Positions 4,153 through 59,136 of a DNA stretch of 64,000 nucleotides are shown in pieces. The position numbers were made by a program, and so were the translations under genes. Every line of letters starts with the position of its first letter. Position 1 is the stretch's first letter. The stretch lies in assembly GCA_046563655.1 (NCBI GenBank), contig CM102285.1:8122001-8186000 (forward strand), in the 5' to 3' direction. The notes beneath the pieces were generated by a model. The model was not told the DNA's origin. It made no database searches and saw only the letters and a list, made by a program, of their open reading frames with translations. The DNA is from Yuukianura sp. NJ FZ-2021 (taxonomy: Eukaryota).

Positions 4153-4239
4153 GTGTGTTATATTCTAATGATTAAAAATCAACCCTATTTGTGTTACCTA
4201 TATTACATCACCCTCTTCGCTAAAAAAAATTTCCTTTAA

Positions 4240-4812: not shown

Positions 4813-4869
4813 TTAAACCCGTTTTTATTTGTTTTATTACGTATGAATCCGGTTCAAATAAAACCAATA

Positions 4870-7819: not shown

Positions 7820-8450
7820 AGTTGATATCTGGACTCCGAGGGAGTCGGAGGCGATAGTGTGCTTAGGCTCCGCGGGAGTCTGAGCCGGAGCAGCAATAGT
7901 TAAGTGCTGACCGGCGTTGGATGTCCGACGGCCGAGGTCAAGAGGTCACGCGTCTATTAGCATATAGTTATCCTAACTTGTAAACCTGTTAGTAGGTTAG
8001 TTGGCAGTTGCCATATAAGGAAGGTCAAGTTGAAGGTGACCTTTGACCTTTGACACATACGGTGAAGTCTTCATGGAGTAGGGAGTTTTCTAGATCTCAA
8101 TAAACATAAGACGCTCAACAACCCTATTGTTCTTCTGACGTTTATTATATTTTCTGAATTGGAGTTTATCTCAAGATACGATAGTGTTGTATTTGAGGAA
8201 TATTGCACCGCCGATTACAGTCCTTATTCACATTCCGAGAGCGGAGTTGTCGTTTCAGAGAGGCTCTGTTTGTGTTTGGCTTGCGGTTTTGGTCGTTTCG
8301 ACGGCTGACGGATTCCGAGTACGGAGAAGCCAGAACCAGAGAGATTCCAGAAGCCCTTGCTGGTCAAGCCGACTTCCGGAAGTATGCCGCCTAAATGGGT
8401 GACAATACCTACAACGAAAGTGCACTGCACACTGCACTGTAACTGTAACA
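7820..8450 (+). repeat. Possible LTR of the older plus-strand env-bearing element (boundaries uncertain)
   Basis: TATA-like CATATAAG near 8012, AATAAA at 8099, ends near TGTAACA at about 8450. No partner LTR in the window. Confidence 0.3.
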
Positions 8451-10905
8451 ATATGGGACGAACTTGAAAGGAAATTAATTGTGTAATTAGCTATTTAAGG
8501 ACTTGCCACACCTGGAACTGCACCAATCGATGGTCAAGCAGAGACTCTTTCAAATCTTAGCTCACTAGACAGTGACCTTACCAGGTGAAGCTAGTGTTCC
8601 AAAAGTTTCTTTGGTTCATCGAATAAACAAACGACTCAAGTGTCATATTTTCTTTCTTGATTTTTTATTGTTTCAAGTCGTCAGGACTTGTAATATTGGG
8701 TAAGTCTAAATGTCCAGTTTTCGATGAAAGGTCATGGAAGGTCATTGTTCCTTGTCATATTTTCTCCATTCGTTGTGACATTCTGTGTAATGCCACGGCA
8801 ATGTTCAGTCATTGCCATACTTTCATTACAATTTTCAAAATTACTAATTTTTCTTTTTATTTTTCCAGATTCTCTCCAGCCGATGTCTCCTGCCTCAATC
8901 AACACTACTTCGACGATTCCGATGCCAAAGCCGCCGACCATTTCGACTCTCAGTAATTGCAATCCACCCAATGGAGCATTGGATTTCACGAAATGGCGAA
9001 TTCCTAAGAGGTCAACTCGGGATGGCGAGGAACAAACTCTCATACTGCCGACTAAAGCGGAAAGGTTAGTACGGCCCTACTACTTCAAACTCGATGTCCA
9101 AAACTCTGCTCATGGTGCCTGCGTTTTGGCCACGAGATTGGACGATGCATCTTTCGAGCCCTTCAACTGATACCGACCTCAACGCTATCCTTCTCCAAAT
9201 CATGATGCTCCAGGAGAAGCATCGAACTAAGGTGGTAGGAATGTTATGATAACATAACGTCAACTATTTCTTAAAGTTCAAAAGTAAAGTTCATATGCAA
9301 ATGATCTGTTCGTTAAAGTTCATTTCTGCAAACAAAAGACATTTTCCTTTTGTTAGACATAGAATGTAGTTTGCAAATACTTTACATGTATGCCAAGTAG
9401 GGTAACTTGTGTCTTTGTTTTACTCCAGTGGTTTCCGGCTGAGACTCTATAAAAGGGCTCAATCAGGCCAATACAGAATGATTCTTTCCTTCTAGTTTCC
9501 TCTGGAACATTCCCTCTTGTACGGCCTCACTGCGAGGTCAGGGCTTAGTGTCCTTGTCCCTTCTTGTATTGAAATAAACACGGGTCAATACCATCTTTCA
9601 CATTGCAACTGGCAATTCCAACTCCGACTTTGAGAAGTACATTCATTTCAGTACAATGTTATGGATTTTTGATTCTTTAAGAAAACCTGTAATGCAAGAG
9701 ATCCAAGCCTTCAAAAGAATCATGCTTGGCATGAAGATGAGGGAGAAGAGCCGCAGGAGAATGCCAAGAAAGCCCTTGAATATTTGAACATCGTGGCGAA
9801 CACAAGCCCGATGAGTCAGAGGCAAGCGACAATGAAGGACACGTGGAAGTGCAAGCGGAATCGAAGCTGGAATACATGCGCCGTGCCGAAGAGTAGGAAC
9901 TCAACCTTCCATCAAATCCTTTTAAATGAAGGTGGTCTGGTTTACAAATTTAGAACCTCAATCACCTTTTCCGTTCCACGCTTGTCTTGGATTCGTCCGA
10001 TACTGTTCAGGTAATTAAGTTTGTCGCCAGAAATACTGAGTTTGCCATTTTTCTGGTTAAATTTAGAGTTACCTTTACAGTTCGGATGGATTCGTGGACC
10101 TTGTCTGTGCCATCTGTGTAAACGTTGGCGAAAAAGATATCTGGAATAACCTAACCCAACAAGTTAACTTAACTCTGGTATAACCTAAGCAATAAAATTG
10201 AAAGCAACGGAAAGGTGCTAACACTGCTGAAGGAATGACCGAAAAACTGAATGCCATGACAACCACGTGTTTGTGGAATTGCCCCAGTCGATTCCACTAG
10301 AATCTGTAGTTTAAAGTTCCCGCTAACTTTACATTTAAAATTCCCACAATTTCAGGCGTCGATCTTAGCCCTTTGTCACTGGTAGTACAATGCTTTCAGT
10401 CTGCTAAGTATTCGCTCTCTCACTTCTCATTAAGAATTAATTGTTTTCAATTAAGTAAACTAAGGGTCAAAAGCCATGTTTGATCTGAGCTTCTGAGATT
10501 GGTCAAAAAGGCTTTCCTGTCTTGCATAAAACTGTCACTTCAGAAAAACATATTAAAATTATTAAGAGAATTCTATGCTAGATAGTGATATTAATCTTAC
10601 TCAATCCCAACCTTATTATTACTAACCAAATATTGTCACACTGTTTTCAAGCTTGTCGAAGACGAACACTCTGCAGAATAAATACAATGGGGAAAAAAGA
10701 ATTTAAACATCAGTTTAAGACTAGAGATTTGAAGGAGAAGGATAGTGCCAAAACTATGCCGGGGCCAAGTTTTCATATTTATAATTTACTATTTTCAATG
10801 TATATAAGTTGTAATTTTGAGACATAACGCCAAGCTCATTATGAACCCATTTCCCAGAAAACGTAAATCGAGCGGCGTTGAAATTAGCAGTATAAAACAC
10901 TCAAG

Positions 10906-11324
10906 ATGGGAGAAGAAAACATTGCCTTAGCCCTCCTTGCACTTAAAAATCTTGTCAAGGTCAACTCAAATCATGCTTCACTTTCTCAACAACTCCAGTC
11001 CCTCACAGCTGAAGTCACTTCAATCAAACAAAGAGTCCAGATTACTGAAGATGAACAGAAAAATTCAATTCAAAATGCACAAGCCCACGAGGCAGACAAC
11101 GAAAGACTTCAAATCGCTGTCAATAAAACTAATCTCGTCTTACACATCCTTCAAAGTATTACAAATGAAACGAAACGATCGCTTATGTCCGAAATTGAAT
11201 CAATTTTTGCCCATAGTTTGCAGATTACCTAACCTAACCCAATGTTTCTTGTCATTGAAGCTTATAGAGGTTGCAAGTGAATTCTACAAAACCCAACCAA
11301 GCAAATCAAAATTGTTTTCAAATC
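10906..11324 (+). pseudogene. Decayed LINE ORF1 (coiled-coil), cut by the LTR element
   Basis: Coiled-coil ORF (LQSLTAEVTSIKQRVQITEDEQ...NKTNLVLH); LINE ORF2 remnants resume after the right TSD. Confidence 0.55.
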
Positions 11325-11329
11325 CCTCG

Positions 11330-11709
11330 TGAGAGGACCTCCTGCGGATGTGTCACTCCCACGTCGACAGTAGCCCAGGAAGAGACATCGTCATGCTGCA
11401 TCTCGGAGGGCCTGGATCCAGGCTGTTCCCAACTCTACCAATAAGCACAAATACCAAGACTCTGCTAACAACAAACTCCGAACTCTCCTTCCAAATGGGT
11501 CTCAGGTATGTCTTTATTCACAATCCCCCTATAACCGAAGTGCTCCCTCTCACTGGACTCAAACCGTAATACTTCCTTGGGTAGAGATCCTCTCCAGAGG
11601 ACCTCTACTCAAGTACTGACTCTTGCTGAGTCGCTCCTCTCCTTAGCGCCTACAGCCTATAGATCTGCATCCCCGAGTGAGGTCACTTACCCCGGAAAGA
11701 GACCTCACA
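11330..11709 (-). repeat. 3' LTR (380 bp)
   Basis: TGTGAGG...CCTCTCA on minus strand, AATAAA on minus near 11513-11518, about 3 substitutions versus the 5' LTR. Confidence 0.97.
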
Positions 11710-11723
11710 CACACCCCCCGTCC
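11710..11723 (-). promoter_or_regulatory. Polypurine tract
   Basis: GGACGGGGGGTGTG immediately precedes the 3' LTR on the minus strand. Confidence 0.8.
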
Positions 11724-11954
11724 AGTGAGAAAATTCACTAGCGGTTACTGTTACACTGCCTAGAAGTGTTAGTAAGATGTTATGGTAAACCCAAAAAAAA
11801 ATTTTCATTCGTAAGTTTTGTATTTTTGTATTTGATTTTTGAATGCACTTAAAGATAAACTACATGCTGTAACATACAGCGATAACTAAGACCCGTCACC
11901 TTCATCTAGGGTTGATTCCCAACTACGTATATGTGTGTTAGTATTTGAATTATT

Positions 11955-12984
11955 TTAATTCATGCGTGGCTTATCGTTGCAGCGTCCAATCTGAATCCCC
12001 AATAACGACACTTTGTCTTCGGCCTGACCATTTCGTAAGACCTCGTCGAACTCATTCGTTAACGGCAGGAAGTCTGATGTGGTGGTCAAAGAGGGTGCCC
12101 AGCGGTCCGTGGTCCACACTAGACGAACGTAATGAAGGCGTTGTCCACATATTGGCTCCACAAACATTGAGGCGACGAAGAAGCCAAGCGATGGACAGCG
12201 GATGAAGGTTTCACCTAATAGGCAAGTTTGATTAACATAAATGAGGCTTGAGCAGGGAGGTTCATTTCGAAAAACTTTATATTTGGAACCCCAAACCAAT
12301 GTTGATGAAATCATGTCACAAACTTCCGCTTTAATATCGCAAGGCATCAGGGACGGCATACCTTCGACAGTAATTTCGCCTCTTACATTAGTCCAAAACG
12401 GTCGAATAGTTAAGTAGTAATTCGTGACTTGGCTAGTTATGGTGGTCGGCCATTTGTACCAAGTAGTAGGCCGCCGTTGTGTCCCAAAAGTAGTGTCGTT
12501 TAGTCGTAAAAGCGGTGTTCCATTTGGGTCCCGGTAGGTAATAGCCAAAAGTTGGCAGTCTAGTCCTGACATGCGTTCCCAACGCTCTTCCTCATACGGG
12601 TAGTATATCCCAAAGAAGTATAACGTTTTAGATTCATACAAAATCTGGCGGCGGCATTCCAAGGCCAAGTCTGGTTGTTCTAAGTTTTCAGACGTATGTA
12701 AATCTAACGTCACCATCGCCTCGGGGACTTGAGAAGACGGAAGACAAGAATGTCGGTTTCCCCGTAACGCATACATAATTCCGAGTGTCCAATGTGACCG
12801 TTGCTCTAATGACTGAACTGGATATTTGTCACGTGATAATTGACCCATTTTCGCATCTGTTGCCTGAGACAAAGTGATATTATTGTTGTTGACCGTTGTT
12901 ATTTGCATCAAGTCGTTCTGCATCTCACGCTGAGTCGCCACAACACCCCCCCACCATGATGAGGAAAATTAGTGTGTTAACCAT
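11955..12984 (-). CDS. env-like paralog 4: secreted class III fusion-domain-like protein (one G-run frameshift after the start)
   Basis: ATG at 12984 gives signal peptide MVNTLIFLIMVGGVVA if the G7 run at 12946-12952 is G6. Motifs ECRRQ...LYFFG...DC...YKWP...VTNYY...CDIKAEVC...LVW. No TM helix. Confidence 0.8.
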
Positions 12985-13100
12985 CTTCTGCAATGCACAG
13001 AGAACAAAATGTATTATACAATAAAAGTACCCTTATTTGTAATTAATTATCCCATAAGCCCCTGTAAGCAAAACAAAATTAAAAATTAGTAAATGTTGCC

Positions 13101-14339
13101 TTATTTCTTAATAACCAATCCCGCGTCGATTTTAATAATAGAGTTATTGTTTAAAAACGCCGCCACATCGAAAGTTTCGACGTCCTCATTCTCATCCCAT
13201 TCCGTAACTCGTCGAGCAGGCACCGTAGGTTCTACATCCATGTCATTAATGTGAAAAGGTTGATACTTCTGGAGGTTTAAAATAGTCTGAGGACGTGGAC
13301 TCGTGCGTACTGGTGGAGAATTGAGTTGCTGTTGGTCCACTGGGCTGCAGGATGCAATATGCAGTACTTTAAGATAACTTGGAGAGCCCCACTGTATACT
13401 CTGATAGAGATGTTGAAAATTCATCTCGATGTGAAAGGTTTGTGTTGTGTCGATGGTGTTAGTTTCGGTAGGAGGCAGAGTTTCCTCGGTCTCCAGAATG
13501 CTCCTCGAAACTCCCAAAGGTGTACCGCAGTCCTCCGTAGACGAGTTGTAGTAATCGGTAATACTAATAGCAAGGTCGGGGCAAATTAACTGTGCCGGAT
13601 TTAAGTAGCAGTTGGAAGGCATCTGTTTTTTCAGTGCGCATGAACTATTTTGAATTCCCGGGAAACGCCAGACTAACAGTCCTCTCTGTGTCCAACAGGA
13701 TAGATCCTTAAACGGGCAAGGTGATTGCAAGTCCGGGAGGAGGGAAGCACGTACGTTGCCGGAATAAGGATCATGTTGCATATCCACAAGTGAAATATAA
13801 TAATTAAGGATTCTAACCCCCCATGGTTCTTTATGTCCAAATTGCGTATCATTTGTTATCAAAAAATTACGGGTAGCTAAAGTGGTGTCATTCAGAATAG
13901 ACATAGGATATCCATCAGGATCAGTCCGCGTAAGATGCATATGGATGCATTTTGTTGGAGTAATAGCTTGTGGAAAGAGCGTAGTGTTGGTGGAGAAGGG
14001 TTTGGAGTGTGACGGATTATAGTACAATTCCTTAACCTCAAGGACACAATGATACCCCTGCACGTAAGTGGTCGGAGAGAGGCCACTCCATAGGGCGACA
14101 GAAATTAAGGCGGAATCTTTTAAATCATAAGGGCAGCTTTCAGGGCGGGTCCTTAGCATTCCCAAAGTCCAAATGCGAGTCCCATTGGTGGGCGGTAATA
14201 ATTCTGGTGTTTCTGTTAAAGCGGTTAAACGAGCATAATGGTCAAATTCAGTCGTGATCAACCGAATCTCCGCTGAAATTAGAGATGACATTGTAACCAG
14301 GATGACCCATAACCCCAGTGTCCCCTTAATTGAAGTCAT
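13101..14339 (-). CDS. env-like paralog 3: intact 412 aa secreted class III fusion-domain-like protein
   Basis: Signal peptide MTSIKGTLGLWVILVTMSSLISA; GYHC...TKC..M...DPDG...LNDTT...NYY...CPFKDLSC...LVW...ICPDL shared with the other paralogs; many N-glycosylation sequons; no TM helix. Confidence 0.85.
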   Translation of the reverse strand: MTSIKGTLGLWVILVTMSSLISAEIRLITTEFDHYARLTALTETPELLPPTNGTRIWTLGMLRTRPESCPYDLKDSALISVALWSGLSPTTYVQGYHCVLEVKELYYNPSHSKPFSTNTTLFPQAITPTKCIHMHLTRTDPDGYPMSILNDTTLATRNFLITNDTQFGHKEPWGVRILNYYISLVDMQHDPYSGNVRASLLPDLQSPCPFKDLSCWTQRGLLVWRFPGIQNSSCALKKQMPSNCYLNPAQLICPDLAISITDYYNSSTEDCGTPLGVSRSILETEETLPPTETNTIDTTQTFHIEMNFQHLYQSIQWGSPSYLKVLHIASCSPVDQQQLNSPPVRTSPRPQTILNLQKYQPFHINDMDVEPTVPARRVTEWDENEDVETFDVAAFLNNNSIIKIDAGLVIKK

Positions 14340-14380
14340 AGTCTGTGAAAGGAAAAGTGGAGAAAAAAATATATCAGTAT

Positions 14381-15467
14381 CTAAACAGTAGCACAGGCCC
14401 CCAATTGTTGCACTTGGATGAAGGTATTCTGTTTTACATTTAGTTGCTCTACCAAAGTCTGAAATTCCGAGTCAGCCACAAATTGGGAATTGTTCATGCG
14501 AAGGAGGGTCGTGGGAGAAGTAGTGATTTTGACAAGAAGCTGGTTAGGTTTAATGATTTCCATATAATGAGGCTGTATTTGGCGACGGGAAAAAGGGCAG
14601 TAGATGAACGTAGGCGTAACATAGCACATGTAATCTGTGTATGTAGTAAAAGCACATAGAGGATCTGAATCTACAAGGAAATGTTCTTGCAAAAGGAATC
14701 CGTTTAGTAGAAGGCAATGGCGTTGTCCAAAGTAGCAAGGTTGGGGAGGTAAAAATAAGTCTGTACTTGTAATTTGTAGAGACACTGGATCCACATGTAG
14801 GGCAACTTGATACACATGAAAATCCACAAAAATGTTTTCCTCATTCGGATGATATCGTTGATGAATCAAAGGATTACGATCCTTATAAGTCGTACGAAAT
14901 TTAGGTTTAACCCACGTCAAAAAAACTTTAAATTGAGAGTGGTTGATCGGCAGATTATAATACGCAAAGAACTCAGAGAAAGCAGGTCAATAGGCGGCCC
15001 TGATGGTCCATGTGATGCATGATCATATCGTAACATTGATCCAAAGTAAAATTGTTGTTCAAAAAAATTGTACCATAGTCGTTGTAAAAGGTAGTGATAT
15101 CTCCCAGTCGAACTGAAGCATAAGTGTGAATTGAAGATCGAGTGCTAGTACAAACATAAGCTATACGTGGATTACCATGCTTCTTGTTTAACCGAAACTC
15201 CACAGAAGTGAGTGTAGCGTCCGACAATTGGATAGGTCGTGGTTGATGATGAGAATTCATGGTGCCAATGATCCATCGATGATGGGATGGTGATGATTGT
15301 TCGCTGGTACCCCAATCGTCCCAAATCTGTCTATTATTAAACTGAGGCTCACTCTCGTCACTCGTAAAATTGTCAGTTAAAGTAGATTCCTGAAGAACTC
15401 TAATAATTGCTGAATTGCCGCAGGCCATAAAGATGATGAGGATGAACAAACACTGTAAACTAGCCAT
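14381..15467 (-). CDS. env-like paralog 2 (one frameshift near 14975-14980)
   Basis: Signal peptide MASLQCLFILIIFMACGNSA; AYVC...DQCYDM...; continues in ORF 14381-14920 with VDPVS...PCYFGQRHC...YMCY...IYCP. No TM helix. Confidence 0.75.
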
Positions 15468-15522
15468 TGCACTGTGAAAATGAAAAGTGAATGTGACGCT
15501 AACTTATGATTGTAGGAAAGTT

Positions 15523-17658
15523 TTACTCCGGGTGTGGGATACCTTTCCAGACAAAGCCTTCACCTTGAATGTAGAGCTCACACTGACGTGGTGAAGGTGC
15601 ACTCGGGACTGAAGGACTTAAGGGACCCGGTGGCTGATAATGAATGCGATACTCCCCCTCCGGCTTAGGCAAGAGTGTAGTCAGAGTAGCTGGGGTTTGT
15701 GTCTGTCCGGCTTGGAAGAGATGCTGATCACTCGTCATAGCGGGTAGTTCAAGCAAAGGTATAACCGTTTCATCTCTCCTAGACCTAGCATGATGCTTGT
15801 TGTTTCGTCAATGTGGAAATAAAATGGTGGTTAGGTCTTCACAGGTCTTCACATAAGACTGGTTCTGGTTCCAAAACAATCTGATGGGATAGGGCATTCA
15901 TGTATCCCTGCATCTTTTGGTGTTGGTACATGAAGGCCACAGGCATATTACGTGTACAATTACCAGTTTGCTGATGAATAAAATGATATGAGTCAATCTT
16001 AGTACACATCTTGAGGGAAATCGCATCTCCTGCCAATGTAGCAATGTATCTATGGTCTCGCAGAAGCATTCTAGCAATAATATTTGGAATTTTGTTCTCG
16101 GTAAGATACGTCGTTATGTCCAAGAGCTGACGTTGATTCAAACAAGTCTGCTGTACCAAGTTTTGAATGGCGTAGGTCGCGTTGGCCCGTACCATGTCAT
16201 ATAAATATTGAAATTTAGCATTCGTTTCACCAGCTGTCAAAACCGTAGCCGGCCTCGGCGTGTGGTCAGTGAGGGGATTAATTAATTGTCGATACACATC
16301 CGCCTCGGTACCTTGTAATACGGTTTGCCTGGCTCCGGATTCGTCCAGAAAGGAGCGTGAGACTTCGGGTGTAAAACTACTACTATTTGATCTTTCAGTA
16401 ACAATAGACCCGTGAAGGTGAGAAGTAGTGATGTTAATATATTCCACAGCACGCATTGGTAGATGAGTCAGAGATGGGTGATTTGTCGGAGTTGCTATCG
16501 GAACAGGTTCTTTCGTAGGTGGGTAAAAGAAGGGGTTATCCCGAAGAAAAGAATCAATCTTGGGTTCCATGGTAGTAGTTTGTCTAGTGGGTTGTATGCT
16601 ATCATTGTCCACAGTAGATGTAGAAGTAGTAGATGGCATTGACGGAAGTCGTCGATTTGTTGTTGATTCAAAACCAGGAGCCTTAGGACGACTCGCAATT
16701 TGTCTTAAAAGAGCTTCATCCGTAGTTTGATATAATTGTCGTTTTTTACGTCCTAGTCCTTTATCAGTGTTTACCCTTGTCGCCACTTCAAAAACGGATG
16801 TGATATGAGTAAAAAACGGAAGTGAATTCTGACGCTGTGGAGAGTACATAACCCCTGTGACCCGTACCCCATCTTGAGCCCACATATGTCAACCTCATGT
16901 AAGTCAACCAGATGGTATGAGATTTCCGGGCACGAAAGTTGATTATTGTTGGTTAACAAACACTCTGTGGTCTTGACCTTTTGAATTCGACAGGTTTGAA
17001 AAAGAGAATGTGTCCAGATAAGGATAGATTCTCCAGTACTTTCACATGAATCCGCGGTGGCGGCACATGTGGCGGTTAGAGGAATCGGTGCCAGAACAGT
17101 TTGATCCAGATTATTCACAGAAATAGTAATAGAAGAAAAATAGTAATTCGTCACATCCCTCTCAATGGTTTTGGGCCAAATATAGTCAATTTCCACTACA
17201 TCAGTCGTATCCCATTTATTATCCAAGAGTAGCGTCATTTGTTTTTTATTCGGTGCCAGTTTGGTAACTACCATATCATGACACTCCTGTCGTGTAACTT
17301 TGATAGGAATTTCCCTAGAAGTACTCGAGTGGCTGCCCCAAAAGAAGAACGATCGTGTTTCGACATTCTTAACCGCCTGACAATGGAATCCTTTTATCGC
17401 GTCCATATTTGGATTCTCCGTCCAAATAGTGAGTGGTACAATCGTCGTAGTCGTATGTAGCTCATCGATTTCGCAAGTTGGAGCCTCTGGCAGTCGATAT
17501 GTCAACGCGCCGCTGTTTTTGTCACAATACCACAAATGTGGCTGTTTTGGTTGAAAGGAACCGAAATATAAACGATAGAGCGTCGTTTCCTCCAAAGATA
17601 AAGATGCCGCTATTCGAAGAGTCGTAAGAGCGTAGATGAGGGAAAAGTATAGCATCAT
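15523..17658 (-). CDS. env-like paralog 1: longest class III fusion glycoprotein (chuvirus-G/rhabdovirus-G/gB-like), two frameshifts, no TM helix
   Basis: Signal peptide; GFHC...FFFWGS...QECHDM...YIWP fusion-loop pattern; furin-type GRKKR; NAKFQYLY...TCLNQ...IARMLL...YIATLAGDAISLKMC. Frameshifts at a G run near 16853 and a short tandem duplication near 15833-15853. Confidence 0.82.
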
Positions 17659-17749
17659 GCTTCCCCCCGTTGCGGGTTATCTAAAAAGTCATGCTGGATA
17701 GTGAAGGCCAGTCCACATAAAGCTAAGGAAAGAATTAGTATACAATGTA

Positions 17750-17990
17750 TCATCCGCACTCATACGCTTCAAGCCAACGCGGTGGTCGTCGTGAACGCCT
17801 TGAAGTACTAATAGACTGTATGTCTGGTATAGGAAACGGAGATTGACGAACGTCATGCGTCACGGCTGTCGATGGGGGGTTAACTGTAGGTGCAACCTCG
17901 GGTCGTGATGTCTTTATCGGGTATGCTAACCCCTGCAGCGATACTGTGGATGGTGTTTCTGCTCCTACGGTAGACCAACCCGAGGTTCTG
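17750..17990 (-). pseudogene. Remnant of a pol (integrase) C-terminal tail
   Basis: Low-complexity P/S/T tail ending TSRRSRRPPRWLEAYECG*, a typical LTR-retrotransposon pol end, placed just upstream of env-1. Confidence 0.55.
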
Positions 17991-20617
17991 TCAAACAACA
18001 TTAATACCTTCGACGATGTCTTACGCATCGGTTACAACGCTGGGCATTATGAAGACCTCACCCCGGAGTCCCTGCTAAACGACGAAGCTGAGACTACTGG
18101 CGACGTCGTTCCCCTCGATACAGATAACGATGATGATGAAGTCCGGCCTGTCATGAGCCGGTTATTGGATACCCTGGAGAATGAAATGTTAATGCCACCT
18201 CTGTCCAGCTCCGTGTCTGCAAGCTCTCCTGCCCCTCATATGCCGTCAATTTCAAAACTGACTGTTCTTAGTTTGAAATGGAAAAACTGTCTTCCCTTGA
18301 CGAAAAAATCTCGTAACTCTCGGCGTAACCGTATCCTTTCTGATTCGGAAGAGGAACTTCCCGAAACCTCTACGACCTCTGACAGGAATCCAACTCCAAC
18401 ATCATTTACGTCGCACGGATTACGTCCCCGGCGTGGAGTCATCTACACTGAACGGGGCGTGTCACCCGTGGCGCACAGTTCCCGTAACGTCAAGCGCGGC
18501 AAATCAAACCGCCGTAGGGCAGACCCGGAGATAGAGCCCCCTTTCGAGTTGAATGATGTCGACACTGAGGACAATACTCACAGTGAGTCCTTAACCTACA
18601 TCCGGAAATCCGTGGCTAAGGTGTTCGCAACGTGGAAACGGGAACTCATGACTAAAAAATGTCGCCGTACGCCTTGGCGGTATGACCCTGTCCTTGCCTA
18701 CTGTGCCTCACGAAGACTAACCACAGCCCTCTGTGGGAGCTTCTTTGATGCCCTGAAGCTAACTCTGCGTCCAAAAAGTTGGACCAAACAAGTAAGTGAA
18801 TGTACGCGTTGTTAATCTGGGTTGAATTAATGATCCGTAATGTCTTACTGCAATATAGATGAGTGACAAATGTGTAGTGTCCTTCTTCAAGGCTGTAACT
18901 CAGTCGACAGAGGAAATAAGCTTTTTTCTGAATCTCCTATGCCATTGGGTAACGGAACGTTTCCAAGACTGCGTCTACAAACGTGAGTCTCATGACATCA
19001 CTTACTGTTTCAATGTAAGTACGGTTCCTTTCAAAACGATCAGTGGGTTGTGTGGTATTACTGATTGATGTCTCGCTGTTTTAATAGTGGTTATTGGACA
19101 ATGAAATTGTGTCACGAGTCGCTTTAGCGACTTGGTGTGTGAACGCCACTTGGACAGATCCCAAGCAACCCATTCGAAACCCGTACCATGATGAGTTTCT
19201 GGACTACATCCACGTGCTAGGGCCAATTTACCCCATGTTAACTCGATTGTTGGAAAGTGTGGTAATACTTGGTACTCTAAGATAAGACACCGTTAATTAT
19301 TGTCTAAAATATTCCTATTATACGGTTTATTGTAGAACAAAGCAGATCCTATCAGCGAGCACGTAATGCAAAAGATCGCGTCCTGTAAACAAGCCGCCCC
19401 TGTGACTGCTGGACCGATGTCGCGCGCTACTAAAAACCTAATCCAATACTTAGAAGATCCTCGCTTCAAACAAATGGTAAGTTAAACCAGGTTGTTATTG
19501 ATGAAAATAATTAAATTGTATGTTGTTGACCTGCCTATCAAGAAAGTCTTTTACCCACCCATGCCTTATCTATATATCCTAGTTACTAAATGATCGAGGT
19601 GCATTTGACATTGACAGTCAGGTCTTAGCGAAATCCCATACAGGCCCCCGATACCTGGTGTCAGGGTAAGAAAAACTATTGTACCTTATGCCAGTCAAAT
19701 ATTTTACAAAGATAATAATTTTCAATATTTTATTACTAGTGCATGGTTGTTAGACAGCAACCAAATGGATTTCCCCGAGGCAATCGAAAAATTCGAGAAA
19801 AAATTGGCCAAACATGGAGAGAGTTTCGTAAAGAGTCGTTGGACTGATGCTGGCGGGAATCATGACATCTTAAGGATCCCCACACCCCAAGCTGGTACCT
19901 TTCGTTAACCTTGGATTGGTAATGTCATTCTGATTTGAATTTCCTTATCCCTAGTTTACTTTCCTCAAGACCTGTTGACCTCTTCGCCCATCGAAGGGGG
20001 CGTATTCTATTGTGGATTGTGTCATGCTCATGCTGAAGAATCTAACTCCACCCAAATGAATGGCCCCGACCCCGTAAAATTTACAGCTACGGAATTCGCG
20101 GAACACGTACTGGAACACGACCCGCTCTACCGAGTCGATCAGCGTTGTGGATGCTACCAAACTCTCTGGGTATCAAATCGAGATGCGCATGCCCTCCGCT
20201 GCTCTTCCTGTGTGTGTTTCCAACACGACTTTACAGTAAGACAAAACACCTATTGAAGTATGTCCTTTGTTAAATATTTAATGCTACGTCCTGTATTCTT
20301 TTCAGGTTGAAGAAAAACGTAAGCATCTCTTTGAAGACAAAGAACGTAACCAAGAGTACCGTGGTTGCAATTTTTGCAATCTATGTAATCAAAACATGAA
20401 AAATATTGAGGCTTTGGAGCTTCATAAGGTAAAGGATTGTGTATATTGCCGCAATTGTTGGAAGCTGTATTCGGAATTAGATATGTCGCGGGAAGAGCAC
20501 ATTAGATCCTGTAATCGTTGTTTTTGCGGTGTTATTTATACCGACCCTCTGGAATGCCTAGCTTGTCGCACATATTGTTTAAAAAGAAATGTTTATTTGC
20601 CCCGCCTTGAGAATTAA
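17939..20617 (+). CDS. Antisense multi-exon gene inside the LTR element: ~700 aa, acidic/basic disordered N-terminus, Cys/His-rich (zinc-binding-like) C-terminus
   Basis: Exons ~17939-18791, 18859-19014, 19088-19261, 19336-19476, 19583-19665, 19740-19894, 19955-20235, 20306-20617 splice in frame without stops across 60-106 nt GT-AG introns. ATTAAA near 20656. The 5' start is uncertain. Confidence 0.85.
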
Positions 20618-20756
20618 GTGTCTGCTTTGTGAAGTAAGTGCCCTTAATTATGCGTATTAAAAGCAACCTTCATTTATATTACTTGTGCTGCCTTACCTTT
20701 GCTCGCAGGGAAAAAAAATTTTTTTCGTTATTACCATGTTTATTTGATTCCGTATG

Positions 20757-20777
20757 GATCCGGTTCGAATAGGACCA
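20757..20777 (-). promoter_or_regulatory. Primer-binding site, tRNA-Tyr-like
   Basis: TGGTCCTATTCGAACCGGATC 3 nt after the 5' LTR; resembles the complement of the tRNA-Tyr 3' end (TGGTCCTTCGAGCCGGA) with a 2 nt bulge. Confidence 0.8.
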
Positions 20778-20780
20778 ATA

Positions 20781-21160
20781 TGAGAGGACCTCCTGCGGAT
20801 GTGTCACTCCCACGTCGACAGTAGGCCAGGAAGAGACATCGTCATGCTGCATCTCGGAGGGCCTGGATCCAGGCTGTTCCCAACTCTACCAATAAGCACA
20901 AATACCAAGACTCTGCTAACAACAAACTCCGAACTCTCCTTCCAAATGGGTCTCAGGTATGTCTTTATTCACAATACCCCTATAACCGAAGTGCTCCCTC
21001 TCACTGGACTCAAACCGTAATACTTCCTTGGGTAGAGATCCTCTCCAGAGGACCTCTACTCAAGTACTGACTCTTGCTGAGTCGCTCCTCTCCTTCGCGC
21101 CTACAGCCTATAGATCTGCATCCCCGAGTGAGGTCACTTACCCCGGAAAGAGACCTCACA
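20781..21160 (-). repeat. 5' LTR (380 bp)
   Basis: Near-identical to 11330-11709; followed by the PBS on the minus strand. Confidence 0.97.
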
Positions 21161-21165
21161 CCTCG

Positions 21166-24100
21166 GTGCGCGCAATACCATTTGGAATAATCGTGAACAT
21201 GTTAAAAAACTCACCCAACGCTCAAATTCACACAAGATCTACAGTTGAGTTAGGTGTCACCTAAGCTAACCTAACATTCAAATGAATCAAGGACCCACAT
21301 CTTTTGCTTCTGCCAACAAAACATCAGGACTTGGACGCAGCAACATTACCTAACGTTCTCTTACTACTAGCACATGATGACTCCTATATATCCAGAACTA
21401 ACCAACACAAAAACCAACTGAATGTAAAAAATGTAAAAAACCAATCGTCCAATGTCTTAAGAAGCCGATTAAATGTAGCAGCCCTGAATGTGTGCGGTTT
21501 CAACTCAAACGCTGATTCAATAAAATACTCCTTGACATGTACAAATTTGACGTTACACGCACCAACCCTCCACGACCTATCAACGGCTTCAATTTCTGCA
21601 TAAAGTTTGTGATTGGCTAGGAAAAGGAAGAGTGGGAATACTTATTCGTTCATCACTGAAGATTAGCAAAAAAACATTATTATACTTGGGTTAACAAAAA
21701 CGTTGAAGTGATTACGGCAAACATTCACTGATATTATGAACGATGTATCGAAACTATTACGTCACTGTTTAATGAACTAAATACAACCAGCAAATCTTCG
21801 TCCGTGCTTGGTGATTTCAACATCAATTCCATTTACATCTCTCGGAGATGTAATCATGCACTGAAGCAACTAAGTTCAGTTTTTAACAATTAGTGAACGT
21901 GTCCCGTGGTGACTGCATACTGGACTTAATATTCTGCAACAACCCCTGATCTCAATTTTTTCGATCCAGCTGTTTCTGATCACTGCGTCACTTCTATATT
22001 GGCGAATCTGTCTAAACCCAAAATAATGAAAATAAACTCCAATAACAAGACTACAAAGCCTTTGACTTTGAAGAATTTGGACGAAAGTACATTTATATAT
22101 CATTAGCATTTATATATCACATTTATATATCATTTAGCAAAAATTTTGCAAAAAGATGTCGATAATCTCTTTACTGAATTCATGTCAAAAATCAACACCA
22201 ATCTATAATCAAAACGCGTACAGTGTCAACCTCACCACAGCCACTGCCACTCTCGCTCTCCGATAACACGAAAATACTGATTTCAGAAAAGAGATAGGTA
22301 CTTCAAAATAACCCGTTCTCCCAATCTCATCTCCGTCAACTCAAACAAATTAACAAATCACTCAAATCTGCCTTCATACATGACAGAAAGTAATCACTCA
22401 ACACTGAAATAAAGAAAATTGGCCCGTTCAAAGCAATCTCCAGGATTCGTCTAAATTCAAAAAATCTTAATCAAAAACTTCTCTTTGCTGCTGAAAAAAT
22501 TAACCAATACCACACTGCAATTACTCCACACTCAAGTTCAACCTTCTAAACCACTTCTCATCAACAGACCCTGTGAACAGTTCACATTTTCTAACATTAA
22601 TACTGTAGTATTTAATCAAACTTGGAAGAACCTTAAGAACAAAAATGATAAGCGCAAAGATCAATTCGGAACTTCCAATTTGATTTTGCCACACTGCTTG
22701 GGATCTCAAAATATTAAAAACCAGGTTATCCACCTGATGAATGCTTCACCGAGAACTTTTCCTACGTCACCTAAACACTCAACAGTGATACCGTTAGCTA
22801 AAGTGTCCAAACCCTTACAGCCAAGTGAAACATGTCGTCCGATCTCTTTACAGCCTGTGATTGCAAAATTATGTGAAAGGTCTGTCCTGAGGACACAAAA
22901 AACCTTTTTCAATCTCCTGTAGGCGAATTCAATAGAGAATATGGTTTGGCTTGAGCTTGTCTTCAAACCGGATCGCAAACTGAAACCTATGCAATCCAAA
23001 AAATTTTTACTCAAGCCAACCCGAAACCAAACAGAAAGCGAGAGGAAACCGAGCCAAACAGGAGAAAACTCGAGGTCTATTGAATCGGCTTATTCAATAG
23101 ACTTTTGGAGTAAGCTAAAAGTTAGCCAAAACTAAGCTTTTTGCAATCCATGTCCAGACCAGGCTTGGAACTGGTTTACCCATTGCTTCGCCATTACTAA
23201 TTAGTAATTATTACTCCTTGTGACTACTGTCAGCCCCATAATAAGTGGTCAGCGCAGTAGTCCAATAGAAGATTAAGGTTTTAAAGTAAAAAACCATACG
23301 CCAACAACACTAATTGTGCAGTGGTTGTGATATTAAAGTAACGACGTCGGGCCCCAGTTCGGAATAGAGAAACTTCCTAGTATCATGCAGTGGAGGGAAT
23401 AACTATACAATTAAAATGAGATCTGCATTCACCTAATCATCACATTTAAACATTACGCTTAGATTCCTGCTAACAGAAGTGTATATCTTACGTAAGTTTC
23501 CTCCCGTTATGTCAAATGATTGGGACTCACCGGAGGCGCTGACCATTTTCATGGCTCTGACCATCCGGCTGATCCCACGAGTAAACATTTAACGTACTTG
23601 CGCCTAGCCTGGTACCCAATGTAATGAAACTTAGTAACATTCGTTATAATAAAAACAAATTCATAAAAGGCGGGTACAATTCATCGAATCCATCATATGA
23701 AGCAAGGAATAGGTCAGCGCCTTAGTGGTCAATGCCTATTCCTCGTCTGAAAAGTTGAAAGTAGTGAGATGGGAACAAATTTACTTGATATGGAATGCAA
23801 AAAAGTTATAAAGTTTAATTTTGTAAAAGTCAGCTGATTAGGTAAACACAATTTCAATTTGAAATTGCAATTCAAAATTTCTCCCGCCCCATCTCGGTTT
23901 TGCTAGGACGTCTGAGTTTGAGACAATCGGCTAAGTTTCAGCTTGCAAACCCAAACCGAGAGAAGCTGAAACCAAGATTCCAATTGAATTCCAGCTTCAA
24001 CTTCAGTTTAGGATTGGGTTGGTTTGAGTTTTTCGAGGTTTGCGTTTGGTTTCGGTTTTTTTCCTTTCTCTATTGAATCCCTCTCCTGAGTGATGCCCAA

Positions 24101-24300
24101 TTTGGGTTACGCAACACTCACTCTACAACGATGGGACAAATCGCTTTGCGGAACTTATCTATACTCATTTAAATTGCAGAGAAGTTTGCCGTGTGATCTC
24201 ATTGGCTTAAAAAAAACATTTTGATACTGTATACAAAGGCATGCTTTGTGAAAAACTACAAGTGGTACAACGTTAGATCTCCATGGTTTGAACAATCTCA
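21166..24300 (+). pseudogene. Heavily decayed LINE ORF2 (endonuclease and RT), continuation of the element at 10906
   Basis: LNVAALNVCGF (endonuclease start), LGDFNIN near 21808, VSDH near 21971, STVIPLAK...CRPISLQPVIAKLCE, and LLSDAQFGLRNTHST resuming after the MITE. Confidence 0.8.
22920..24082. mobile_element. Non-autonomous TIR DNA transposon inserted in the LINE RT
   Basis: Ends AGGCGAATTCAATAGAGAA and TTCTCTATTGAATCCCT; CTCCTG duplicated at 22914-22919 and 24083-24088; RT reading resumes across it. Confidence 0.75.
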
Positions 24301-27300
24301 TTGAATAAATCTCACACTTTGTATTAAACAATAGATCACAAGGCGTGAAAATGAATGTAAAACCTCGTCATTACGTTCTAATACGTTCTTGAGCCGGCGT
24401 AAAAACTTGAACCAAAACAGGACCATGCGTTTCGCACCTGTCAGTCCAAGTGTACTGATTGGTGTGCAAAAAAAAGACATAAAATTAAATTTTATGTCCT
24501 CTTCTTCCAGTTGAGACATAAATTTGGTTAAGTGTTAATGTGACAAGAAGTAAGAAAAAGCGTACGATGCCATTGTTTAGAATGCGTAATTTTTTAAGCT
24601 TATTGGAGAAATCAAAAGTGATTCTATGTTTCTCCCGTGTTTCTCAAAATCGCGAACATGTCCCACAAAAGTTGAAAAACGCAGTTTCAATTTGTGCTGC
24701 TACTAAAATCCAGAATTTGAAATGTTTGAAAACGAAGCGGAACAGATGTGGTGCCTTAACAAATGGACACTTTTGAATTACCCTTTTCCCCTTTCTGAAC
24801 AAGGGACTTAGCAGTTAAGTTTTGAAGAGCAGCGAAAGTACGCGAAATGTCCGCCATTTGCCCGATTTTTTTAGAGCAGTTAAAGTGGGAAAATTAAAAA
24901 ATCTGGCAATCGTGTGTGGACATATTTTCCAGAAGTAAGTACCCAAATGTTCTGGCATTAGCGTCAGAAATATTTTTGCTTAGAAGAGAGTAACAGTTCA
25001 CCCATAGTGGGAAAGTAAAGGGTAAGGGGGAAGATAGCGTTAAGCCCACTCTCAATCTCAAGGTATGTTAACGCTCTTCCCAAAATTCAACACTCTCTCT
25101 CTCTCTCTCAAGTCAACACTTTTCCTATAGCATTTAAGTGTAGTATTAAGTAGTGGGAAATGAGCAGTCATGCGAATTACTTGCTCCGCCTTTACTTCCA
25201 CGTCAGCTCCACGTCTTCAACAGTAGTACATAGCATAACAATACACATAAGTTTACAATTCATTCACTACTAGAATCTTCTCTGAATTCAATCTTTTTGA
25301 GTATCTCAACTTTCAATTAATTGTTTCTTTTCATTAATAAGTATAATTAAAAGTAATTGGTTTATTTGGCATTACTTGATTGGTCTCATCATCTTTCACA
25401 TCATTCAAATCCATTCTCACTTGAATTCTGCACATCTTATGGCCACGATCAACTACACCAAATTTTTCCAAATCTTCATAAAGTTAAACCTTTTATTAGA
25501 AATAATTTTTTGGGCTTAGTAAGTTGGTGAAGGGTTGATTTTTTTTGTAGAAAGTGTGTCTTAAGTGTTTGCATAAATCACGTAAGCAATGAAATTGAGA
25601 AACGTAAGAGGGAACCTAGACAAAACGGCTCACGCTACGTCAAACGACTTAACGTTTGACCTAAAGTAAACCTAAAGTATTAGTAAGTTTTTAATTTAGT
25701 TCTGATTCAGGGAATTTTGTTTTTAAATTCATACTTGCTTTTGGTTATTTTATTTTTTTGATATTACTCGTGCAAGGGTGACCATACACAGTTCAAGCCA
25801 AAATGCAGAAACAAGGATGTTTTTTTTTTTCGGTAGGGAATTCGAAGTTACATTTGGAGGAAGAAGATGATGAAACATAGGTTTGTAAGAAAGTTACTTA
25901 CCAGATAATTGCTGACTTTTTTTGTTTTATTTGTTTGTTTTTGTTTGGTTTAGTACCAACTCCGGAAATTTTGTTAAACCTGCCAATGTGTGTTCTGCCA
26001 AATCTGGTAAAAGTGAAAGTTGTGATACACAAAACCACACAGACACGTTTGGAAGAACCTACCCATAGATTAAAGTAGGAGGAACGATTTGCAGAAAATT
26101 TATGACAAATTCCATATTACTTTTATTTTATTTGTTAGAAAAATGCAGACGGACATGGAGCAAGAAATTGAGCAACTCTAAATTCATTTAACGTTAGCTC
26201 AACAACGTGCCAGTGACGTTGAAGGAACACTTGCATCTGCTCTTCGCGAGTTGGAAAATGAGCAAAAAAAGTGGAAAGTTTGTTGGTCTATGCAATCGCC
26301 TCCCGTTGACCCACCCCGTGCCGTCACCCGTGAGCCCGATGGACAAGTTCCTAGACCATCAAATGGTATTAGGAGACCCTTCAGATGAGTGACGGTTGGT
26401 CTGGCACATGTATTCCTACGAATACAAAAGATGCGGAGGATGACACAATTTATATAAACCGTAGAAGTTTTGGTAACTACCGTTTGTGCCAAATTCAGTT
26501 GGACGATGGCGGTTACAGAAAGGTGGGTCAAACCGACACCACAAACTCAAGCGGCCATAAATGATATGTTTCTTCGTCATGGTGTCAAAATTCTTGGAGA
26601 TTTCTTGGTTGATTCTTAAAGAAACAGAAAAAAATTCAACGAAAAAAATTTATGATGCAAAAGAAGAGAAATAACACAATTCAGATGGAACATTCGGTAT
26701 TAACGAGTAACGTTTATGCTGTTGTCAAAATACCATGTCACCGAAGGTATGAAAACGTTTGAGATTGACGTTTTGCTGAATTAATAGCTTAATTGATTAC
26801 TGCTATCTCACATGAGTTACCGCACAAAAGTTAAAATGTAGACTTTGAGCAAAAATCTACTCCTCCTTTGTGTTGTGGTGATTAGGCGTGTATTCAATTC
26901 GCCGCGAGGGCAGCAATTTTTTTTTGTGTTACGTTTTACAAATTTTGGTAAATTTTTAAATTTCAGAGGGAGAGTCGTAAATTTGGTTGAGTGTGACAGA
27001 TTTTTCCAGGTGTTCTGTTGTCACGTCTGAGTCGTAAAAAAAGCTTTGTATTTGACCGCACGTCTCACCTTTTGTGGTTTTTGTGTTGTTTATTACGAGG
27101 ATGCTTATGATGTTGTTATAGATGAAAGAGCGGCTAAACCACCCTTTTGTGGTTTTCAATCTTCCCTCCAAAAAACTTGTTTACTCTTCAGTTCGGTTGT
27201 TGCTCTAAACAATTGAGGGACACATATATCGCGTAGGACGCAGCGCAAAGCTTCTAGCCAGAACTGACGTTCAACTTTATCTCTTTTTTTGGCGCGACAA

Positions 27301-27418
27301 TGGAAGAAGTGGCGACTCTTCACTGTTTACCACCACAGGTGGGTAAAGTTTGGAAAAATTGTTTGTTTTTGTAAAACCTTACGAGTTATGTTGCTGTTGT
27401 TCATAAAAAGTTGGAATT

Positions 27419-27882
27419 TTTTTTTTTTTTTTTTTTGGAGAGTTAATTGACATTAGCATTTAGCTTTATCAACAGGGGTAGGGAATTTCTGGGTTGGGTT
27501 GAGGTCCTATGAGGTGGGGCGGTGGTACAGTCAGATAGTTGGCGAGAAGTTCTGAGGGAAGGACGAAAGGCTTTCTGCTAGAGCTGAACGGGCTAGGGCC
27601 CTACCACATATCACAGCTCCAGGCAAGTGACAGGAACAGCATCGTACGCATACCGGCCCACGACCCCCCTCCACAACAGCAACTACTGACCTCTTCACAC
27701 GCACCCATAACCCCCAAAACTGACCTATCATCCGAACACCCCATCTGGGCTAGGAAAGTGGAAAAACCATTTCTGGAAAACGACTTTCGTGTCGGCGACG
27801 CCGGGACTCGAACCCGCGCCCGTCCAAGGTGTTAGTAGGATAGAGCCGGAGCTCTAGTCCCCCCGCCTACGGGCCTTGGACT
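27419..27882 (-). mobile_element. tRNA-derived SINE with poly(A) tail
   Basis: Pol III B box GGTTCGAGTCC (minus, about 27803-27813) with an A-box-like head; ~20 nt T run at 27417-27436; TSD AAAAGTTGGAATT at 27406-27418 and 27883-27895. Confidence 0.88.
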
Positions 27883-28529
27883 AAAAGTTGGAATTATGAT
27901 TTTAGGTGTTGGGTTTTTTGGATAACGGAGGTTGGCCAGCCGCTGGAAGTACTAGTAAGAGGCTGAAGGAAATTGGAAAATACGATATGCAACTTTGTGA
28001 AGTGGACGAAGCTGATGGTTACAATGAACCAACTACAACTCATAAAAGCAGATGTGACTTTACAGTTCTGGAAACGATTCAGATTTGTTCCTGTCCTCCA
28101 CTTGCCCCGTTGGGACAAGGTGCAACGGCTAACTTTTGAACCTAAATAATGTTAAATTCATTCCTGAGTTACTGATCAAGTGTACACAACTGACGCGTTT
28201 AAAATTTAAGGGCATGCCATCCGTTGGAGAAAACATTTTTGACGAAGAGAAGTTTTCGTCAAATTAAAAAATTGTTCCCTCAACTTAACCACTTGAGCAG
28301 TTTCTACATCTGCAATTTGGAAAATGGTACCAGTCGCTCCTTACTATCAACCGTGACACTTTCCCCCATTAAAACTGGGACGTTTGCGTGACTTTGCGTT
28401 TATGGTCCGATTTGAAAATATTAAATATTTAAAGCTGGGGACAATAATTGGGTGCGCACCTCTGGCGCAAGCTTTTTTGAAATTCCGGACACGGTTAGGG
28501 AGAATTGTTGTACGTAATTTGTTGCACGA

Positions 28530-29065
28530 ACCTAAATAGCAGAGTAGTAGGTGGGTTGGGCTTGAAAGCAATGCGAGACTTATCTGAAGGAGATTCTTGT
28601 TTTTGTATGCTGGACAAGTTATTGATCTACAAAACAAACTGACCCTAACTAATGGTCTAACAAATTCCTTGTCGTGGTCTTATGAATTGTATACTGCTTT
28701 TCTAGCTTTTTAAAAGGTGTCTTAATGTTAAAAATTTTTGCTTTTGGATTCTTTGTGTAGCTCAGAGTTATGCTATGTCGCTCCGCAACTCGGTCAGTCG
28801 TGATGATCAACGTTTGTTTGTTGATGCTGCTACGTATGGAAATATCGCACGATTCACCAATCACAGTTGTAACCCGGAGGAGCAAAATGGCATTTTCTTG
28901 GAAGGCACTAAGCTTGGAAAGGCAGTCGTGAAAGTGGAAGCTAAGAAAGAGGAAAACTTTTAGCTCCTTATGCTTCAGAGGATGAGCAAATGGAATTTCG
29001 GTACAACTAAATTGAACAATGTCGCTGTGAAGGGATGTTTCGACGTATCATCGGTTCTACGCGTC
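28530..29065 (+). pseudogene. Decayed SET-domain lysine methyltransferase
   Basis: GLGLKAMRDLSEG...YAGQVID, probable short intron at about 28690-28760, FVDAATYGNIARFTNHSCNP, post-SET-like QCRC; frameshifts and stops. Confidence 0.8.
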
Positions 29066-29449
29066 ATCCAAACTTTCAGGATGAGGCGCGTGACACAACT
29101 GGAAAAATATCTTCCGGAAACGAACCTGCTAAAGGTTCGGATGGTCGATGGATAAAGCGTCCACCCGCCGCATTATAAGTAAAAAACCGTCGTATATGAT
29201 AAAAAAGTATTAAAACGAAACAGCGAATCGCATCCAATGTTAAGTAATAATGTCAGGAATAGGATTTCCAACTTTTTAACATTCTCCCGACCTAACTCTC
29301 AGCACCGTTGAGGATATTTTCGCTGCATTTCCTTCAGTTGAACATTTTTTTCTAAATCAATCAGCGGCGTACAGAGTCTAGAAGGTTCGAGCGAATTTGA
29401 ATCCCAAGTTCTATTGAAACTTCTTTGGAGAATATAGTTCGCCAGAAGT

Positions 29450-59134: not shown

Positions 59135-59136
59135 CA

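Follow-up and report, generated by a model that had tools for sequence, protein, structure and literature searches.

The stretch of DNA analysed here, called the window throughout, spans 64,000 nt of the genome of Yuukianura sp. NJ FZ-2021 (assembly GCA_046563655.1, CM102285.1, positions 8,122,001-8,186,000, forward strand). It is eukaryotic DNA, rich in transposons, and it holds two plus-strand copies of an intron-rich gene: copy B (17847-20617) and copy A (2707-4152), the latter partial. Copy B lies between two long terminal repeats (LTRs) and beside a row of open reading frames (ORFs) that resemble viral envelope (env) genes. All comparisons of the gene rest on these two copies, both of them inside the window, in which no third copy was found. 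The exons of copy B, all on the plus strand, are as follows.

17847-18791, plus strand: exon 1, an open frame of 315 codons, acidic and then Ser/Thr- and Arg/Lys-rich, with a tentative 5ʹ boundary
18859-19014, plus strand: exon 2, 156 nt, phase 0
19088-19261, plus strand: exon 3, 174 nt, within which homology to copy A begins, at 19172
19336-19476, plus strand: exon 4, 141 nt
19583-19665, plus strand: exon 5, 83 nt
19740-19894, plus strand: exon 6, 155 nt
19955-20235, plus strand: exon 7, 281 nt, with the first Cys/His clusters (C-x2-C...H-x3-H; C-x-C-x11-H-x3-C)
20306-20617, plus strand: exon 8, 312 nt including the TAA stop, with C-x2-C-x12-H-x4-C, C-x2-C-x13-H-x3-C and a C4 cluster

These eight exons are joined through seven GT-AG introns of 60-106 nt each, giving a frame of 2247 nt, or 748 codons, in which the terminal stop is the sole stop. 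An earlier reading of this DNA, made from the letters alone and termed here the sequence-only reading, had proposed seven short GT-AG introns and a stop-free product of about 700 amino acids, and the joined frame bears this out. Reading through any of the seven introns of copy B, or any of the five introns of copy A, meets at least one in-frame stop. The GC content of the introns is 0.22-0.40 versus 0.38-0.52 in the exons, and the minus strand opposite the gene contains no ORF of 150 amino acids or more. Copy B is very probably a real, spliced protein-coding gene.

The second copy of the gene has been interrupted by another transposon, and the features of this region are listed below.

2707-4152, plus strand: copy A, from late exon 3 through the stop, with five introns and 353 codons without an in-frame stop
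2707-2796 (cut), 2874-3014, 3119-3201, 3275-3429, 3490-3770 and 3841-4152, plus strand: exons of copy A
859-2700, plus strand: non-LTR retrotransposon with an RVT_1 ORF, its intact 520-amino-acid reverse transcriptase ORF at 859-2421 and an A-run at 2687-2700

The non-LTR retrotransposon is inserted in exon 3 of copy A and cuts that copy at 2700/2707. Its reverse transcriptase was considered as a part of the element to which the gene belongs, and this was rejected, since the A-run ends exactly where the homology between the two copies starts. Because copy A is undecayed over its 353 codons, its disruption is recent. The window shows neither the 5ʹ end of this retrotransposon nor the remainder of copy A.

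Conservation between the two copies is confined largely to what is coding. The lengths of the five exons following exon 3 (141, 83, 155, 281 and 312 nt) and their phases are the same in copies A and B, as had been claimed, and GT-AG boundaries are found at all five introns common to the two copies (12 of 12 introns over both). Copy A has neither a stop nor an exon indel in 1062 nt, and its introns differ in length from those of copy B. At the protein level, 277 of 354 amino acids are identical, and nucleotide identity is 88% and 89% at the first and second codon positions versus 58% at the third. By the NG86 method, the 354 codons yield a nonsynonymous divergence (dN) of 0.122 and a synonymous divergence (dS) of 1.26, hence a dN/dS of 0.097 (bootstrap 95% range 0.059-0.138; pN/pS 0.18; Fisher p 1.5e-49), a ratio that is approximate because dS is near saturation. 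At four-fold sites, 45 of 104 positions are identical and 59 differ, or about 1.06 substitutions per site. Purifying selection had been proposed for the gene, and this comparison, which was set beforehand as the check, places dN/dS far below 1. The introns had been described as barely alignable, which is a fair description: their cores are 0.63-0.77 identical, versus 0.58 in shuffles, and in three of the five introns the observed identity is reached by at most 1 of 300 shuffles. The contrast between exons and introns and the purifying selection are real and far beyond chance.

Two features flank the coding frame.

20656-20661, plus strand: ATTAAA, a hexamer like a poly(A) signal, 39 nt past the stop and aligned with the ATTAAA of copy A at 4171-4176
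17659-17846: spacer of 188 nt separating the start codon of the nearest env-like gene (minus strand) from the open frame of the gene (plus strand)

The short 3ʹ untranslated region (UTR) is alike in the two copies beyond chance (the observed score is reached in 3 of 500 shuffles). At the other end, the arrangement with the neighbouring gene is head to head, and the spacer may serve as a divergent promoter region. The sequence-only reading began the gene at 17939; this position is at most a possible acceptor site. A 5ʹ mini-exon was sought and rejected, as no candidate had an acceptor score close to those of the real acceptors.

The predicted product is divided into regions of distinct composition. 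Residues 1-102 are acidic (21% Asp/Glu), and Ser/Thr (23%) and Arg/Lys (18%) abound in residues 103-315, which contain four basic patches, at amino acids 153-162, 193-197, 216-224 and 270-274 of the 748-codon frame; N-terminal patches resembling nuclear localization signals had been predicted, and it is these four, within amino acids 153-274, that were found. Residues 316-550 are more hydrophobic. The C-terminal residues 551-748 include 29 Cys/His, and every cluster named in the sequence-only reading (CGLCHAH, HVLEH, CGC, CNFCNLC, CVYCRNC, CNRCFCG, CLAC..YC) is present in the product. The spacing C-x2-C-x12/13-H-x3/4-C occurs in two units, at amino acids 669-690 and 693-714, with looser units at 571-606 and 616-634; we take the two spaced units to fit the classical pattern of zinc fingers, in a form that ends in Cys. 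Over exons 7 and 8, copy A retains 26 of 28 Cys/His, including 15 of 15 in exon 8.

Searches for relatives of this protein used exon-sized queries, exons 2-6 solely as fragments of 28-58 residues rather than as the joined protein. Searching Pfam with each exon at E up to 10 returned no family, only three sub-threshold chance rows. In a phmmer search with exon 8 against 1.84 billion representative proteins, there were two matches (E about 6e-4), both to simple repeat proteins and rejected as spurious. Word-based protein searches with exon 7 (against longer proteins) and exon 1 (against proteins of near its own length) gave no match, nor did alignments of exons 7 and 8 against metagenomes and viral contigs or PDB sequence profiles at E up to 10. 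The best ESM Atlas scores, 0.85 and 0.91, have no family in common, and rows belonging to zinc-finger families scored 0.79-0.86. With the model of exon 8 as a fold query, Foldseek found nothing in the PDB at E<=0.001, and the best VIA wide score was a Z of 3.5. As far as these tools reach, the product is an orphan, without homolog, Pfam family or fold for queries of exon size. A nuclear role in binding nucleic acid may be guessed as the most economical reading. The nuclear regulator or anti-silencing factor of the sequence-only reading is speculation from composition and Cys/His spacing.

Self-comparison of the window revealed three direct copies of a repeat of about 424 nt with TGT...ACA ends. 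These LTRs and the motifs next to them are given here.

4828-5248 (about), minus strand: LTR1, in the same orientation as the others, 675 nt past the stop of copy A
11330-11709, minus strand: LTR2, with about 42 nt of its outer end absent
20737-21160, minus strand: LTR3, the proposed 5ʹ LTR, with AATAAA solely on the LTR minus strand
20726-20736, minus strand: site like a primer binding site (PBS), TGG directly after the inner end of LTR3
11710-11727, minus strand: short G-run like a polypurine tract (PPT), which reads GGACGGGGGG on this strand and adjoins LTR2 at its inner end

LTR2 and LTR3 enclose copy B, whose stop is 120 nt away from LTR3. LTR2 and LTR3 are identical at 378 of 381 positions (99.2%) and have TG..CA ends, whereas the identity of LTR1 is 92.4% with LTR3 and 94.2% with LTR2. 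That the gene sits within an LTR-bounded unit, as had been claimed, is thus upheld by a direct-repeat pair that encloses it. Moreover, an LTR of the same family and orientation lies downstream of the gene in both of its copies. On the plus strand, neither inner LTR flank resembles a PBS or a PPT. Because the TGG, the G-run, the AATAAA and the env-like ORFs are all on the minus strand, the element is read as minus-oriented, and the gene would therefore be antisense to it. This orientation, with LTR2 and LTR3 as the ends of one insertion, is probable. The earlier claim of antisense carriage divides at this point: the LTR pair and the minus-strand TGG and G-run favour it for the present insertion, and the divergence of the gene copies and the 594 nt beside copy A, taken up below, leave long-term carriage by this LTR lineage conjectural.

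The remainder of the interval is occupied by the env-like ORFs.

11958-17676, minus strand: tandem env-like ORFs
17658 to 15842, minus strand: G1, a class III fusion glycoprotein with a frame break near 16774-16888
within 14471-13104 and 12968-11958, minus strand: further paralogous N-terminal regions

The ORF at 15842-16888 matches PF24664 Monjiviricetes_fusion (E 5e-11, 41.7 bits versus a cut-off of 27) and, more weakly, Glycoprotein_B, and the ORF at 16774-17676 has a weak match to Rhabdo_glycop_FD. All seven sub-threshold PDB sequence matches of the env proteins are to herpesvirus glycoprotein B (gB). Within the window, tblastn detected two more copies of the N-terminal region, 22-25% identical, near 13320-13970 and 12075-12704, and several of the ORFs start with a hydrophobic run like a signal peptide. 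Judged by these matches, the ORFs of 11958-17676 represent three or four fusion-glycoprotein paralogs of class III (gB/rhabdovirus-type), arranged in tandem and interrupted by one frame break or more. The sequence-only reading had taken these minus-strand ORFs for a pol remnant, an assignment that the PF24664 and gB matches overturn. That the env is of class III suggests an element of animal type. G1 found no match among longer proteins or viral contigs. Spliceosomal introns linking the env ORFs were also considered and dropped, as a brute-force search returned arbitrary combinations only. Elsewhere in the window, an env-like fragment at 5257-5451 (plus strand) is 28% identical to G1 residues 281-347 (PF24664, E 7e-4); because it begins 9 nt past the outer end of LTR1, the LTR1 element seems to have inserted in an older env of another family.

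The explanation proposed for this locus is that a spliced eight-exon gene with its own ATTAAA is carried antisense in an LTR-bounded, env-bearing retroelement without gag or pol. The parts of it that are directly supported are the structure of the gene, the purifying selection on it, the LTR pair, the identity of env and the absence of gag and pol. Read along the minus strand, the element would consist of the 5ʹ LTR (20737-21160), the PBS-like site, the gene on the opposite strand, the 188-nt spacer, the tandem class III fusion-glycoprotein genes, the PPT-like G-run and the 3ʹ LTR (11330-11709). Transcription of the gene would start in the spacer and run toward the 5ʹ LTR, and the transcript would lose seven introns by splicing and be polyadenylated short of the LTR. 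In the genomic RNA of the element, the same introns would be reversed, so that they could not be spliced there and would be kept through reverse transcription; antisense placement would in this way explain why the introns are retained. In the product, the N-terminal third would be disordered and acidic/basic, the middle would be conserved and without a known family, and the C-terminus would bind zinc through five or six clusters. Its most likely role would be a nuclear one, in which it binds nucleic acid or chromatin and serves the element, for example by controlling transcription or countering silencing. The element itself would be mobilised in trans. The orientation of the element, the transcription and splicing of the gene, mobilisation in trans and all functional aspects are what we infer from the features above.

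Several observations weigh against this explanation. Some concern the element itself. As the outer 42 nt or so of LTR2 are gone, a target-site duplication is unreadable, and the PBS-like site consists of the TGG alone. A Pfam search of the six minus-strand ORFs and exon 1 found no gag, protease, reverse transcriptase, RNase H or integrase between LTR2 and LTR3, and a further 60 ORFs of at least 70 amino acids in 1-11400 and 21100-30000 contain no gag or pol family; the non-LTR reverse transcriptase beside copy A, which is unrelated, is the one exception in 1-30000. As gag and pol were not found between the LTRs, the element is at best non-autonomous. Three or four tandem env paralogs in one LTR pair are also an unusual layout for a retroelement. 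Others concern the gene and its product. The first in-frame ATG of copy B is at 18153, with none earlier in the open frame, and a start there would give 646 amino acids. An ATG at 17745, in the same frame as exon 1, is cut off by a TGA at 17844-17846, which may be a nonsense change in copy B or may be due to chance. At E up to 10, no zinc-finger family of Pfam was matched by exon 7 or exon 8, whether from copy A or copy B, and the structure models are poor (for exon 8, a predicted local distance difference test score, or pLDDT, of 66.9 in one of five models and 38-46 in the rest; for exon 7, 36.4).

The most serious difficulty is a conflict of histories. At neutral sites, the gene copies have diverged by about 1 substitution per site, versus 8% between the neighbouring LTRs, and 594 nt (4234-4827) that copy B lacks separate the 3ʹ UTR of copy A from LTR1. 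This stretch has no match in the rest of the window, the LTR included; that it might be an old LTR was rejected, as it shows no similarity to one, and homology of the stretch left of LTR1 to the PBS side of copy B was rejected as well (225 of 500 shuffles reach the score). The mismatch in divergence and the 594-nt spacer together imply that the gene and the LTRs have different histories, and an extra event is therefore required, either an LTR swap between old element lineages or independent insertions. Non-autonomous elements often share LTRs with a helper. Because of this conflict, and with two copies only, antisense carriage of the gene by the element is rated an even call. The wider proposal, that there is a family of env-bearing LTR elements without gag or pol in which element-level selection has kept an intron-rich antisense gene for an orphan nuclear protein with several zinc fingers, in lineages diverged to saturation and despite LTR exchange, is tentative and rather doubtful. 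Such a family would be a natural example of a retroelement that relies on antisense placement to take a host-style multi-exon gene, regulatory or anti-silencing, through reverse transcription.

Slightly less probable still is an account in which the element has no part in the history of the gene. The gene would belong to an old lineage-specific host family, or one long domesticated, its two copies would be ancient paralogs that arose at the DNA level and were preserved by selection on the host, the LTRs would mark separate young insertions and the interval between LTR2 and LTR3 would be trapped DNA. The conflict of histories is what such an account predicts, both in the divergence of the copies relative to the adjacent LTRs and in the unmatched 594 nt beside copy A. 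Moreover, the architecture of the gene is host-like, down to a poly(A) signal of its own, the interval is without gag or pol and no target-site duplication can be checked at the truncated LTR2. The LTRs themselves argue otherwise. A single insertion fits the 99.2% identity of LTR2 and LTR3, versus the 92-94% of LTR1, better than two insertions do; TGG and the G-run stand exactly at the inner LTR ends; and an LTR of one family and orientation lies just downstream of both copies. In addition, the only neighbours of the gene in the interval are viral-type glycoprotein genes, and an old host gene would not usually lack homologs as exons 8, 1 and 7 do here, weak as exon-sized queries are.

An improbable alternative is that the unit is virus-like, or a mobile or endogenised element that moves at the DNA level and is no retroelement. 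It would combine a glycoprotein cluster with a divergently transcribed, spliced zinc-finger regulator, and the 424-nt repeats would belong to it as direct terminal repeats or be LTRs that arrived later. The head-to-head arrangement across 188 nt, the deep divergence among the three or four tandem glycoprotein paralogs (22-25% identical), the intact preservation of an intron-rich gene and the failure to find a reverse transcriptase in the interval would all suit such a unit. However, Pfam searches of ORFs in 1-30000, and of ORFs of at least 150 amino acids in the rest of the window, found no gene for capsid, polymerase, integrase or packaging of a DNA-virus or Maverick kind, and the repeats have the TG..CA ends and the PBS-like and PPT-like inner flanks of LTRs. 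Furthermore, env of the gB type is known cargo of LTR elements, as described in the accessible part of PMC13524379.

Finally, that both copies are dead relics, their selection past and nothing now made from the locus, is quite improbable: the cut in copy A, the doubtful start of copy B (the TGA at 17844-17846, with no ATG before 18153), the frame breaks in the adjoining env ORFs and the 0.8% LTR divergence, at which an intact copy B frame might be expected by chance without current selection, speak for it, but the 748-codon frame is intact over eight exons with a possible start at 18153, copy A is undecayed in 353 codons, and the idea, which is about the present state of the locus only, is compatible with every other reading.

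The gene and the LTR element proposed for it lie in a window with several other transposons and repeats, and the main ones are listed below.

58589-63942, plus strand: Ty3/gypsy gag-pol with capsid, zinc knuckle and a 1070-amino-acid ORF for reverse transcriptase, RNase H and integrase that reaches the window end
51560-52624, plus strand: copia-type gag with zinc knuckle

A tandem array with a period of about 92 nt lies at 54800-55222. Two inverted repeat pairs, 85% and 94% identical (42496-42881/43385-43741 and 46567-47021/48929-49379), may be the terminal repeats of other elements. The window has two occurrences of TTAGGTTAGG, in which the telomere-type repeat TTAGG is present as two units, at 33022 (plus strand) and at 11237 (minus strand), and the latter sits just beyond the truncated outer end of LTR2. 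A short ORF piece at 28706-28960 (plus strand) matches a SET domain (E 1.2e-4, 22.9 bits versus a cut-off of 22.4) and may be an exon of a host gene. Over the whole window, the observed/expected ratio of CpG is 0.78-1.14 and dinucleotide bias of the kind left by repeat-induced point mutation (RIP) is absent; the host therefore seems not to deplete CpG in these repeats. No tRNA genes and no Rfam families were found in the window.

Antisense extra ORFs of LTR elements are known, their function is poorly understood and, in the accessible part of the literature, none is described with a multi-intron, host-like structure. The literature search likewise found no multi-intron antisense gene in an LTR element, within a partial coverage of sources that did not extend to a 2011 survey in Genetica of plant Ty3/gypsy elements and their extra ORFs, which may be relevant here. 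If the proposed explanation is true, antisense placement lets retroelements keep complex spliced genes. The locus would then represent a new orphan zinc-finger family, a candidate for control of element expression or host silencing, and an env-only, non-autonomous type of element with several class III fusogen paralogs. If the gene is instead a trapped host gene, the locus would come down to a family of orphan genes, unannotated, within a nest of transposons.

The closest known systems are the antisense extra ORFs termed aORF-3R, which, in the available part of a review, include gene23 of maize Grande and those of rice RIRE2, Silene Retand, Phaseolus PvRetro13 and Botrytis Boty (PMC7264820). 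As described there, the interval from pol to the 3ʹ LTR is where these ORFs are found; their promoters are internal, they are without database homologs, and some of their products are nuclear (PMC7264820). Like them, the gene described here is a coding unit opposite the genes of its element, given the orientation proposed above, with a putative internal promoter, no homologs, a suspected nuclear or regulatory role and maintenance across copies. Unlike them, as far as their partial description goes, it is found in an env-only element, on the side of the 5ʹ LTR and the PBS-like site, whereas they are found at the pol/3ʹ LTR side of gag-pol elements. The gene here also has seven introns, and introns go unmentioned in the accessible part of that review (PMC7264820).

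Antisense genes are likewise found in retroviruses, and the two cases agree in some respects. The gene here resembles the antisense gene of human T-cell leukaemia virus (HTLV) in being antisense, spliced and presumably for a nuclear regulator within an LTR-bounded, env-bearing element. The HTLV gene is HBZ, which encodes a bZIP protein and has one intron. The antisense promoter of HTLV is in the 3ʹ LTR, according to the part of the review available (PMC7264820). Unlike this gene, which starts in the 3ʹ LTR, the gene here would start internally, next to env, with its 3ʹ end facing the 5ʹ LTR, and it has seven introns and Cys/His clusters.

With respect to env, elements with a gB-type env are widespread among metazoan Ty3/gypsy and BEL/Pao elements, in which it accompanies gag-pol, and antisense genes are not mentioned for them in the accessible part of the source (PMC13524379). 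The element proposed here is like these in being LTR-bounded and in having a gB/chuvirus-like fusogen on its sense strand before the 3ʹ LTR. It differs from them, as they are described in that part, in having no gag or pol, three or four env paralogs in place of a single one and an antisense spliced gene. That the removal of an intron depends on its orientation relative to the transcript of the element is the principle of the antisense-intron indicator cassettes engineered for retrotransposition, as set out in the available part of PMC12786077. Those cassettes are engineered reporters, whereas the arrangement here would be natural and would preserve a working multi-intron gene.

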